Of a stretch of DNA of 64,000 bases, positions 16,938 through 21,532 are shown in pieces. Origin of the DNA: Escherichia coli (GTDB taxonomy: Bacteria > Pseudomonadota > Gammaproteobacteria > Enterobacterales > Enterobacteriaceae); assembly GCF_003334385.1 (NCBI RefSeq), contig NZ_QOWN01000013.1. One strand, 5' to 3'. How positions within the stretch are numbered: position 1 is the first letter of the stretch; each line of letters starts with the position of its first letter. Below the pieces are notes generated by a model. It made no database searches. It had not been told where the DNA came from and saw only the letters and a program-made list of their open reading frames with translations. A program made the position numbers and the translations under genes.

Positions 16938-19613
16938 ATGGCTGTTACTAATGTCGCTGAACTTAACGCACTCGTAGAGCGTGTAAAAAAAGCCCAGCGT
17001 GAATATGCCAGTTTCACTCAAGAGCAAGTAGACAAAATCTTCCGCGCCGCCGCTCTGGCTGCTGCAGATGCTCGAATCCCACTCGCGAAAATGGCCGTTG
17101 CCGAATCCGGCATGGGTATCGTCGAAGATAAAGTGATCAAAAACCACTTTGCTTCTGAATATATCTACAACGCCTATAAAGATGAAAAAACCTGTGGTGT
17201 TCTGTCTGAAGACGACACTTTTGGTACCATCACTATCGCTGAACCAATCGGTATTATTTGCGGTATCGTTCCGACCACTAACCCGACTTCAACTGCTATC
17301 TTCAAATCGCTGATCAGTCTGAAGACCCGTAACGCCATTATCTTCTCCCCGCACCCGCGTGCAAAAGATGCCACCAACAAAGCGGCTGATATCGTTCTGC
17401 AGGCTGCTATCGCTGCCGGTGCTCCGAAAGATCTGATCGGCTGGATCGATCAACCTTCTGTTGAACTGTCTAACGCACTGATGCACCACCCAGACATCAA
17501 CCTGATCCTCGCGACTGGTGGTCCGGGCATGGTTAAAGCCGCATACAGCTCCGGTAAACCAGCTATCGGTGTAGGCGCGGGCAACACTCCAGTTGTTATC
17601 GATGAAACTGCTGATATCAAACGTGCAGTTGCATCTGTACTGATGTCCAAAACCTTCGACAACGGCGTAATCTGTGCTTCTGAACAGTCTGTTGTTGTTG
17701 TTGACTCTGTTTATGACGCTGTACGTGAACGTTTTGCAACCCACGGCGGCTATCTGTTGCAGGGTAAAGAGCTGAAAGCTGTTCAGGATGTTATCCTGAA
17801 AAACGGTGCGCTGAACGCGGCTATCGTTGGTCAGCCAGCCTATAAAATTGCTGAACTGGCAGGCTTCTCTGTACCAGAAAACACCAAGATTCTGATCGGT
17901 GAAGTGACCGTTGTTGATGAAAGCGAACCGTTCGCACATGAAAAACTGTCCCCGACTCTGGCAATGTACCGCGCTAAAGATTTCGAAGACGCGGTAGAAA
18001 AAGCAGAGAAACTGGTTGCTATGGGCGGTATCGGTCATACCTCTTGCCTGTACACTGACCAGGATAACCAACCGGCTCGCGTTTCTTACTTCGGTCAGAA
18101 AATGAAAACGGCGCGTATCCTGATTAACACCCCAGCGTCTCAGGGTGGTATCGGTGACCTGTATAACTTCAAACTCGCACCTTCCCTGACTCTGGGTTGT
18201 GGTTCTTGGGGTGGTAACTCCATCTCTGAAAACGTTGGTCCGAAACACCTGATCAACAAGAAAACCGTTGCTAAGCGAGCTGAAAACATGTTGTGGCACA
18301 AACTTCCGAAATCTATCTACTTCCGCCGTGGCTCCCTGCCAATCGCGCTGGATGAAGTGATTACTGATGGCCACAAACGTGCGCTCATCGTGACTGACCG
18401 CTTCCTGTTCAACAATGGTTATGCTGATCAGATCACTTCCGTACTGAAAGCAGCAGGCGTTGAAACTGAAGTCTTCTTCGAAGTAGAAGCGGACCCGACC
18501 CTGAGCATCGTTCGTAAAGGTGCAGAACTGGCAAACTCCTTCAAACCAGACGTGATTATCGCGCTGGGTGGTGGTTCCCCGATGGACGCCGCGAAGATCA
18601 TGTGGGTTATGTACGAACATCCGGAAACTCACTTCGAAGAGCTGGCGCTGCGCTTTATGGATATCCGTAAACGTATCTACAAGTTCCCGAAAATGGGCGT
18701 GAAAGCGAAAATGATCGCTGTCACCACCACTTCTGGTACAGGTTCTGAAGTCACTCCGTTTGCGGTTGTAACTGACGACGCTACTGGTCAGAAATATCCG
18801 CTGGCAGACTATGCGCTGACTCCGGATATGGCGATTGTCGACGCCAACCTGGTTATGGACATGCCGAAGTCCCTGTGTGCTTTCGGTGGTCTGGACGCAG
18901 TAACTCACGCCATGGAAGCTTATGTTTCTGTACTGGCATCTGAGTTCTCTGATGGTCAGGCTCTGCAGGCACTGAAACTGCTGAAAGAATATCTGCCAGC
19001 GTCCTACCACGAAGGGTCTAAAAATCCGGTAGCGCGTGAACGTGTTCACAGTGCAGCGACTATCGCGGGTATCGCGTTTGCGAACGCCTTCCTGGGTGTA
19101 TGTCACTCAATGGCGCACAAACTGGGTTCCCAGTTCCATATTCCGCACGGTCTGGCAAACGCCCTGCTGATTTGTAACGTTATTCGCTACAATGCGAACG
19201 ACAACCCGACCAAGCAGACTGCATTCAGCCAGTATGACCGTCCGCAGGCTCGCCGTCGTTATGCTGAAATTGCCGACCACTTGGGTCTGAGCGCACCGGG
19301 CGACCGTACTGCTGCTAAGATCGAGAAACTGCTGGCATGGCTGGAAACGCTGAAAGCTGAACTGGGTATTCCGAAATCTATCCGTGAAGCTGGCGTTCAG
19401 GAAGCAGACTTCCTGGCGAACGTGGATAAACTGTCTGAAGATGCATTCGATGACCAGTGCACCGGCGCTAACCCGCGTTACCCGCTGATCTCCGAGCTGA
19501 AACAGATTCTGCTGGATACCTACTACGGTCGTGATTATGTAGAAGGTGAAACTGCAGCGAAGAAAGAAGCTGCTCCGGCTAAAGCTGAGAAAAAAGCGAA
19601 AAAATCCGCTTAA
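16938..19613 (+). CDS. adhE: Bifunctional acetaldehyde-CoA / alcohol dehydrogenase AdhE
   Basis: 891-aa ORF with an N-terminal aldehyde dehydrogenase domain and C-terminal iron-containing ADH domain; preceded by AGGAGA RBS and followed by a terminator hairpin near 19707-19736. Confidence 0.97.
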
Positions 19614-19736
19614 TCAGTAGCGCTGTCTGGCAACATAAACGGCCCCTTCTGGGCAATGCCGATCAGTTAAGGATTAGTTGACCGATCCTTAAACTGAGGC
19701 ACTATAACGGCTTCCACAACAGGGAGCCGTTTTCTT

Positions 19737-20633
19737 ATGCCACTTCTCAATGATCTGCTCGATTTCAGTGACCATCCGCTTATGCCTCCGCCCTCTGCAC
19801 AACTATTTGCAGAACACCTTCCCACCGAGTGGATACAACACTGCCTGACGCTTTCTGCTCATGCGACCGTTCGCCGCCGTCGTTTACCGGGGGACATGGT
19901 TATCTGGATGGTGGTGCAATGAGCCAATTACCGATGTTGTTCGCCGTCTGAACCTGAGCGCGGATGGCGAAGCGGGGATGAACCTGCTGGCCCGCAGCGC
20001 TGTCACCCAGGCGCGTCAGCGCGTGGGGGCCGCCCCAGTGGAATGGCTCTTCCGCCAGACCGCACAGACAGGGGCGCGGAACGTTACCTGAAGGATGACT
20101 GGCACGGCCTGCAACTTTTTGCCATTGATGGCGCACAGTTCAGGACACCTGATAAACCCGAGCTGCGTGAATATTATGGGTCTGCCAACACATCCACTAA
20201 GCGGCAGAACGCCTACCCGGTTATGCGTCTGGTGGCCTTAATGAACCTGGGAAGTCACATTCTGCTGAATGCCGTGACCGCACCTTACCGGCAGAGCGAA
20301 ACTGTGCTGGCCCACTCCATGCTCGCCACCATCCCGGATAACTCTATTACGTTGTTTGATAAACTTTTTTACAGCGAAGACCTGCTGCTGACGCTGAACC
20401 AGAAGGGTTGTAACCGCCACTGGCTACTGCCTGCGTGGAAGAATATCGCATCAGAAATGATAGAACTGGGAAACACGGCGTCACCAGGGACCATCCCGAA
20501 ACGACTGGAGCATCTTCGGGGTGCTCTGGAAGTGGTGTTCATAACAAAACGCCCCCGACCATCAAGGCCGAGGTCGGTTAAGATATCAAAAACCCGTTAT
20601 CCTGTGAAACATAGTGCCGCTCCTCTTAAGTGA
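19737..20633 (+). pseudogene. insZ: IS4-family transposase remnant split across frames (insZ/ychG-like)
   Basis: Three consecutive ORFs in frames 0/1/0 (19737-19922, 19861-20091, 20043-20633) resemble collinear parts of the IS4 transposase (...VRRRRLPGDMVIWMV...; ...LFAIDGAQFRTPD...). No intact transposase and no terminal inverted repeats identified. Confidence 0.7.
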
Positions 20634-20914
20634 ACGGCATTGCCCTTCTGGGGCCGTATTTTTTGTTTACCCAAAGCAACTTTTCCATAAACCGACAGCA
20701 TTAGCCTTCATCATATTTGCGACGATGTATAACGCCTAAACACAGGGATATTGTACTTTACAGGTCACAAGTCAACGTCGGTGCTTAAGAGCCCTGTGAG
20801 GCGTATAGCGGCGTTAAAAAACTGCCGAGAAGGGTATATAGCCCGGAAGAAGTGCGTAAAACGAACTGACAGGATAAAAGTGCCCTGCTCACCCTGTCAG
20901 TAAAGAAATTCTTA

Positions 20915-21532
20915 TTAATCGTGGCGATGCCTTTCCTGAATAGCCGTTAATGAGTCGACTTGTAACGCCTCTTTATAGTGTTTACGGCATACAGAAACGT
21001 ATCGTTCATTACCACCAATTACCACCTGCTCACCTTCGTTATAAGGTCTGCCTGCTTGATCAAGACGCAGCACCATGCTTGCTTTACGGCCACAAAAACA
21101 GATGGTTTTTAATTCAACCAGTTTGTCGGACCATGCCAGTAAGTATTGGCTGCCAATAAATAATTCACCTCGAAAATCGGTACGTAAACCATAACAAAGT
21201 ACGGGTATATCGAGTTGATCGACAACCTCCGATAATTCATATACTTGTTGTCTGGTTAAAAACTGGCATTCATCAACCAGTACGCAATGAATTGCCTGCT
21301 GTTCATGTTCCGCACGAATCTCATCAAATAATGATGAATTTTGGTTAAATAATTTTGCAGGCGATGACAAACCTATACGCGAACTGACTTTCCCGGCACC
21401 AAAGCGATCATCAATTTCTGCCGTATATACGACAGTGCGCATGCCGCGTTCCTGGTAATTGTATGAAGATTGCAACAATGCTGTAGACTTACCCGCATTC
21501 ATTGCGGAATAGTAGAAATATAGCTGTGCCAT
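20915..21532 (-). CDS. tdk: Thymidine kinase
   Basis: 205 aa with P-loop ([10 protein letters not shown]), synteny. Confidence 0.95.

Follow-up and report, generated by a model that had tools for sequence, protein, structure and literature searches.

What is the broken transposase sequence that lies between adhE and tdk in this Escherichia coli genome, and how did it come to lie there? In the window (the whole stretch of DNA analyzed, 64,000 nucleotides) the gene order is oppA, ychE, adhE, the remnant, tdk, hns, galU and rssB. The sequence in question, at 19737-20633, is transposase-like and has no intact ORF, the longest one encoding 196 aa. Its left neighbor is adhE (16938-19613, plus strand) and its right neighbor is tdk (20915-21532, minus strand). 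We are confident that the element as a whole occupies 19654-20642 and that it is ISZ (pseudogene insZ), a fossil left in the adhE terminator by an IS4-subgroup insertion sequence that measures 1430 bp when intact. It is an ordinary IS fossil, already catalogued in K-12. As a known pseudogene of the best-studied bacterium it has little at stake; what is useful here are the corrections to its description and the context in which it is found.

Identity and boundaries of the element

The pseudogene is readily identified. PGAP labels exactly 19737-20633 as 'IS4 family transposase, frameshifted', and at the same coordinates the RefSeq record of MG1655 carries the pseudogene insZ (b4573; formerly ychG). 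A mobile-element feature of that record, 'insertion sequence: ISZ', corresponds to 19654-20633 of the window. The K-12 locus is the same and so is its sequence, save for one mismatch in the 1351 bp compared (19600-20950), at 20465, where the window has A and MG1655 has G. Strain SCU-104 is 100% identical to the window over the compared region. ISZ'/insZ is also listed as a K-12 element in the E. coli W genome paper (PMC3032704). The profile NF033592 (NCBIfam, IS4 family transposase) matches three conceptual peptides co-linearly (19737-19922, 19861-20091, and 20043-20633), covering profile positions 1-36, 28-91, and 99-234 of 332. The E-values are, in order, 0.018, 2.7e-07, and 2.9e-23, and the scores 14.2, 30, and 82.5 bits, each below the 115-bit cut-off. 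The initial annotation had read the sequence as a transposase pseudogene of the IS4 family, in the place of insZ in K-12, and the profile matches, the PGAP label and the MG1655 features all bear this out.

The pseudogene is only part of the element. When the window is aligned with an empty adhE-tdk spacer, with an intact copy of the element and with a third allele of the same spacer, the remnant comes to 989 bp, at 19654-20642 on the plus strand, and is internally deleted. It extends past 19737-20633 by 92 bp, 83 bp at the left end and 9 bp at the right. The initial annotation had seen no recognizable terminal inverted repeats and had proposed searching the flanks for repeats of the IS4 type and for target-site duplications. 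Both are present. The 18-bp inverted repeats, CAATGCCGATCAGTTAAG and CAATGCCGTTCACTTAAG, match at 16 of 18 positions, the termini of the remnant being CAATGCCGATCAGTTAAG and the reverse complement of CTTAAGTGAACGGCATTG. The left repeat (19654-19671, plus strand) belongs to the first 21 bp of the element, which are identical to those of the intact copy; the right repeat, CTTAAGTGAACGGCATTG (20625-20642, minus strand), constitutes the last 18 bp, again identical to the intact copy. Outside the repeats lies the 10-bp target-site duplication CCCTTCTGGG, at 19644-19653 on the left and, as a perfect direct copy, at 20643-20652 on the right. In the adhE terminator, the left copy covers the loop and the inner part of the stem.

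It should be noted that the ISZ feature of the MG1655 RefSeq record ends at the stop codon of the pseudogene and so falls 9 bp short of the outer end of the right inverted repeat. It records neither the target duplication nor the terminator that was the target. The boundaries are to be corrected accordingly, to 19654-20642 for the element and to 19644-53 and 20643-52 for the duplication.

These ends bear on a different reading, in which the sequence is a scrambled scrap of transposase with neither inverted repeats nor a duplication, and with a history beyond recovery. The annotated features could give that impression, the pseudogene at 19737-20633 reaching neither end and the MG1655 ISZ feature stopping 9 bp short on the right. 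Both 18-bp repeats, the perfect 10-bp duplication and the known empty site speak against it, and the alignment to the empty site and to the intact copy refutes it; we consider it extremely unlikely. Judged by its sequence, the remnant is structurally a non-autonomous element with both ends complete and the interior partly deleted.

The intact relative, the lesions and mobility

The intact relative that we used for comparison is a 1430-bp element encoding a 445-aa transposase (WP_029488891.1) on plasmid NZ_CP062888.1, at 33002-34431 (excerpt L002:2507-3936). The IS4 family is defined by D(60-110)D(100-150)E spacing and a Y(2)R(3)E(6)K motif (PMC2266710). In the intact relative the catalytic residues are D137, D214 and E318 (spacers of 76 and 103), the motif reads Y311-x2-R314-x3-E318-x6-K325, and the single ORF has the domains Nterm_IS4 (PF13006, 1.7e-30) and DDE_Tnp_1 (PF01609, 5.1e-22) that are expected of the family. 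The window copy keeps only D137 and D214. It is best regarded as a member of the IS4 family by descent and not by function.

Membership in the IS4 subgroup is indicated by the ends and by size. The terminal signature of the subgroup is -AATR--------WTW---- and its target duplications range from 10 to 13 bp (PMC2266710, Table 1 for the signature). CAATGCCGATCAGTTAAG agrees, having AATG at positions 2-5 and TTA at positions 14-16. The duplication is of 10 bp here and of 10-11 bp at six other ISZ sites, and the intact length of 1430 bp falls within the 1400-1650 bp of the subgroup; the window copy measures 989 bp only after its deletions.

The closest named element is IS4 itself (insG), the type member of the subgroup, with 1426 bp as against 1430 bp for intact ISZ. 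The two have much in common. Their 18-bp inverted repeats start alike, with (T/C)AATGCC, and their left ends are similar for the first ~35 bp; a hairpin and a T run, differing in sequence, stand directly 5′ of the ATG in each; and both make duplications of 10-13/14 bp, with a preference for dyad-symmetric, terminator-like targets between A and T runs. Beyond the left end, however, no similarity between the two DNAs is detectable by megablast, and K-12 genomes show only one megablast place for the remnant although they carry IS4. By the convention of ISfinder, isoforms share >95% identity in DNA or 98% in protein. The intact ISZ transposase is only 39% identical to IS4 InsG (E = 3e-86), which makes ISZ a distinct element of the IS4 subgroup and not an isoform of IS4. 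No ISfinder-style name for the intact element appears in the chromosome or plasmid annotations, where it is called only 'IS4 family transposase'.

Compared with the intact copy, the remnant has 935 identities in 989 positions (94.5% over all retained bases) and deletions of 17, 1, and 423 bp. The inverted repeats are identical, as is the left-end region with its promoter-like and hairpin sequences. The intact element differs in being full length, in encoding the 445-aa DDE transposase, and in occupying other sites, with duplications of 10-11 bp. The alignment divides the coding sequence of the remnant (all on the plus strand) into the following segments. Segment 1 (19737-19915) comprises codons 1-59/60 of the 445-aa protein and ends at the 17-bp deletion, which follows 19915 and affects codons 60-66. 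Segment 2 (19916-20070), codons ~66-117, is in another frame and ends at the 1-bp deletion, in a G run at ~20070/20071 (codon 118). The next segment, 3a (20071-20449), codons ~119-244, returns to the frame of segment 1 and keeps D137 and D214. It is joined in frame to segment 3b (20450-20633), codons ~386-445 and the stop, the intervening 423 bp (codons ~245-385, 141 codons) being deleted. This third deletion removes E318 and Y311/R314/K325. Its junction is ambiguous within ~20443-20456, and it is flanked by direct repeats that match at 13 of 14 positions, TATCGCG(G/A)CAGAAA, namely TATCGCGGCAGAAA and TATCGCGACAGAAA.

The initial annotation had spread the transposase over at least three frames, and had suggested aligning the conceptual peptides to place the frameshifts. 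The alignment does place them, at the 17-bp and 1-bp deletions. It also reduces the frames to two: the three segments include two in one frame, that of the ORFs starting at 19737 and 20043, because the first two deletions add up to 18 bp. The absence of an intact ORF from 19737-20633 is confirmed, the two frameshifting deletions and the 141-codon deletion leaving 196 aa as the longest ORF. As an autonomous IS, then, the window copy fails for want of an intact transposase frame. Since the catalytic E318 and the YREK motif are deleted, even with both aspartates kept the remnant cannot encode an active enzyme, and the transposase is dead.

Could the frameshifts be errors of sequencing or assembly, and the gene really be intact? 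This is a general possibility for any frameshifted gene and nothing else recommends it. The 989-993-bp form is present as a single copy in all 27 of the sampled carrier genomes, which are independent assemblies, and in MG1655; because the lesions recur in this way they are not sequencing errors. Moreover, 441 bp are missing relative to the intact copies. The recurrence and the missing bases refute such errors, whose probability we put at practically nil, and no intact frame is recoverable by sequence correction in any of the 27 sampled carriers.

The lesions are genuine. ISZ came to rest in the adhE terminator, across the loop and the inner part of the stem, and made the 10-bp duplication; losses of 17 bp, 1 bp, and 423 bp came later, the largest between the 13/14-matching direct repeats. 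The 5.5% divergence of the fossil from the intact copies is more than in-place decay within E. coli would readily give. The fossil was probably derived from a diverged variant of ISZ, one that was not recovered intact.

Can the remnant still move? The initial annotation held this to be unlikely. The judgment stands as regards self-movement, given the deletion of E318 and the YREK motif. It otherwise holds only where an intact helper copy is absent, and full-length copies (≥80% of 1430 bp) are present in 162 of the 5,426 complete E. coli genomes, and also on plasmids. In principle the remnant could be mobilized in trans by an intact ISZ. Like a MITE, it retains both of the ends to which transposase would bind, its first 21 bp and last 18 bp matching intact copies exactly. 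The other mark of a MITE would be the deleted form dispersed in several copies, and this was not found in the 27 sampled records: the 989-993-bp match is the single best place in all 27, with no second copy of the deleted form, and 25 of the records are without any second megablast place. As no extra copy of the deleted form was found, there is no sign that the remnant has moved.

Other traces of ISZ were met in the course of the searches. A near-intact copy, of 1429 bp and 99.4% identity, annotated as frameshifted, is present in ATCC 8739 (NC_010468.1, 3748227-3749655) and also in ETEC H10407. It lies between silE and copM, genes of the silver/copper resistance island, in the terminator of the former, and is bordered by the 11-bp duplication CCCCGTCAGGG. 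Solo left-end fragments of 86-87 bp (IS positions 1/2-87, ~92% identical) are common on conjugative E. coli plasmids, ~370 of them (e.g., NZ_CP005931.1, 67719-67804), and occur on some chromosomes as well (e.g., UTI89, NC_007946.1, 4865536-4865622).

Three alleles of the adhE terminator

The empty site makes clear what was hit. It is the intrinsic (Rho-independent) terminator of adhE, AAACGGCCCC-TTCT-GGGGCCGTATTTTTT, with a fold of -23.7 kcal/mol. The ISZ duplication spans the terminator loop and the inner stem, and 989 bp now separate the arms of the stem. Half of the terminator has been re-formed at the right junction, as a residual 5-pair stem (GCCC..GGGGC) followed by the T run (20642-20664, plus strand).

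To see how the site is occupied across the species, we compared the 19600-20950 segment by megablast with 5,426 complete E. coli genomes, in 5,424 of which the region is present. The ISZ fossil is found in 1,884 of the 5,426 (~35%, at ≥80% query coverage). A second element occupies the same point in 1,138 (~21%), including the type strain ATCC 11775. In strain EC69 (NZ_CM128670.1; excerpt L003:556-1700), for example, it lies at the point equivalent to 19653/19654 of the window. It is IS4 proper, reduced by internal deletion to 1145 bp and 97.8% identical to the insG IS4 of K-12, with perfect inverted repeats (18/18) and a 12-bp duplication, CCCCTTCTGGGG. The remaining ~2,400 genomes (~44%) appear empty, and examples of the empty site were seen. 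This last count is by subtraction: a 352-base query made from the empty site was uninformative, having its insertion point at ~45-55 and a right piece that covers 88% of its length, and it reached ≥80% in 5,409 genomes. The adhE-tdk spacer thus serves as a marker with three alleles, the ISZ fossil at ~35%, the IS4 fossil at ~21%, and the empty site at ~44%.

The two occupied alleles are in the same site and in the same orientation, and the first ~35 bp of their left ends are similar. One might suppose from this that both descend from a single ancient insertion that later diversified or was exchanged. We regard such a descent as very unlikely. The duplications differ, being of 10 bp (CCCTTCTGGG) in one case and of 12 bp (CCCCTTCTGGGG) in the other; the transposases are 39% identical while the flanks are 93-99% identical; and the IS4 allele shares 97.8% identity with free IS4. 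Recurrent hits, besides, are normal for these elements, IS4 having entered the raiA/bamD terminator one way round in some strains and the other way round in others. Because the duplications differ in length and the proteins share 39% identity between flanks that are 93-99% identical, the ISZ and IS4 alleles represent two independent transpositions into the same hairpin. In the spacer, nature offers a clean case of one terminator hairpin that IS elements entered repeatedly and independently.

In E. coli O157:H7 the adhE-tdk site is empty and another ISZ-like fossil is found elsewhere (e.g., NZ_CP014314.1, 4027709-4028432). This fossil is of ~724 bp in 3 pieces, is 93.8% identical, and is annotated as 'transposase domain-containing protein'.

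Target choice and putative element-borne terminators

Why should one terminator be hit more than once? The other sites of ISZ and IS4 offer some guidance. ISZ was found at seven distinct sites, adhE and six others. At the sites after ypjA, silE, and gndA the spacer has a GC-rich hairpin with an A or T run on one side and a T run on the other, in the form of an intrinsic terminator, and the 10-11-bp duplications span the loop of the hairpin. None of the three others, which are in the NZ_CP062888.1 plasmid, a umuD-like gene and DUF932, is clearly a terminator. In a strict test of centered symmetry, four of the seven sites show 10 or more symmetric pairs out of 14, where random positions of the window have a mean of 3.5 and a probability of 0.0007 of reaching 10. 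The plasmid, umuD-like, and DUF932 sites score 4-5/14 in the test, two of them having hairpins offset by one base. IS4 was found at the mug/rpoD and raiA/bamD terminators. The target consensus that Mayaux et al. reportedly derived for IS4 in 1984 is AAA-N20-TTT; it was re-derived here from five distinct IS4 sites, four of which, adhE included, fit it. The resident IS4 of K-12 is at a site without a hairpin. The rule is therefore a preference and not absolute, considering the three low-scoring ISZ sites and the K-12 resident. ISZ is co-directional with the upstream gene at 5/5 terminator sites. We do not take this orientation bias for a rule because IS4 occurs both ways at raiA/bamD, where full-length copies are seen in the hairpin AAAAAAACGGCAGCTCAAGGGCTGCCGTTTT in opposite orientations in different strains (S43, elppa5, EC0585).

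If transposases of the subgroup recognize dyad-symmetric targets, which for IS4 are of the form AAA-N20-TTT, the adhE terminator would be a hot spot. By analogy with IS4, whose biology is known, it is a near-ideal target, and its repeated occupation would be expected. Insertion into palindromes is not peculiar to these two elements. The IS4-family member ISRm22 targets REP palindromes, and IS1397/ISKpn1 and IS621 also insert in GC-rich extragenic palindromes (PMC1525189). All are thus alike in the choice of GC-rich palindromes. The targets differ in that ISRm22, IS1397/ISKpn1, and IS621 use REP/BIME repeats, whereas ISZ and IS4 use single-copy intrinsic terminators and make a duplication that spans the loop.

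The element also brings hairpins of its own. At its left end a hairpin of 10 pairs, with the T-rich tail TTTTCTT, ends at the ATG of the transposase (19706-19738, plus strand; terminator scan and RNA folds). It resembles an intrinsic terminator, and its 3′ arm holds the GGAG ribosome-binding site, which would be buried. The same hairpin is found in intact ISZ and, with a different sequence, in IS4. Near the right end the terminator scan reports an inward-facing, terminator-like hairpin (20553-20573, minus strand), again present in the intact copy. Upstream of the left hairpin, TTGACC-19 nt-TATAAC (19678-19708, plus strand) can be read as a weak, promoter-like sequence; the equivalent place in IS4 has TTGACC-16-AAGAAT. 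A promoter scan flagged no ISZ promoter in the remnant or in the intact copy, the spacer being of 19 nt. No family reached its threshold in an Rfam scan. The best candidate, ctRNA_p42d at 19704-19740 (plus strand), scored 33.4 bits (E = 3.6e-05), where the gathering score is 50; we rejected it as an RNA gene, the match being sub-threshold and most likely a generic similarity to a terminator hairpin.

In a live element the left hairpin would shield the transposase from read-through, and the hairpins at both ends may stop or silence transcripts that enter from outside. In the fossil, the left hairpin and its T tract may now stop the transcripts of adhE. Because the fossil splits the adhE terminator, the adhE mRNA of K-12-type strains probably ends at the IS-derived hairpin, which would place its end at ~19735-19740. 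Such an IS-derived 3′ end would be of relevance to those engineering adhE, or mapping its 3′ end, in K-12-type strains.

Has the remnant, then, been kept because the host found a use for it? The left hairpin and T tract could have been co-opted as the terminator or 3′ UTR of adhE, or the 196-aa ORF (20043-20633) or a transcript could have acquired a host function. The original stem is split, and among the terminator-like structures 3′ of adhE the strongest is now the hairpin of the IS, at 19706-19731. The element is also near-invariant, being ≥99% identical in 1,874 records. We think co-option unlikely, all the same. About 44% of the genomes are without any insert and 21% have a different element, and the flanks are just as well conserved, in keeping with a recent ancestor common to the carriers. 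A replacement terminator would be a passive consequence of the design of the IS and is not evidence of selection. As to a transcript, no Rfam family is at threshold. A domesticated 196-aa ORF was rejected, the catalytic E being absent and most genomes being without the element.

We also entertain, with some doubt, a more general idea, that elements of the IS4 subgroup (IS4, ISZ) are 'terminator-seeking': they would recognize terminator dyads, insert in the loop, and bring an inward-facing replacement terminator that excludes read-through. Were this so, host terminators would be safe and reusable landing pads, which would explain the repeated, independent hits at adhE and raiA/bamD, and the adhE fossil would be one record of the strategy. 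That IS4 prefers such targets has long been known; the logic of the replacement terminator and the recurrence of insertion on the scale of the population may be undescribed.

A further terminator-like hairpin with a T-rich tail lies outside the IS, at 20869-20888 (minus strand), just 3′ of the tdk stop codon, and is presumably the terminator of tdk.
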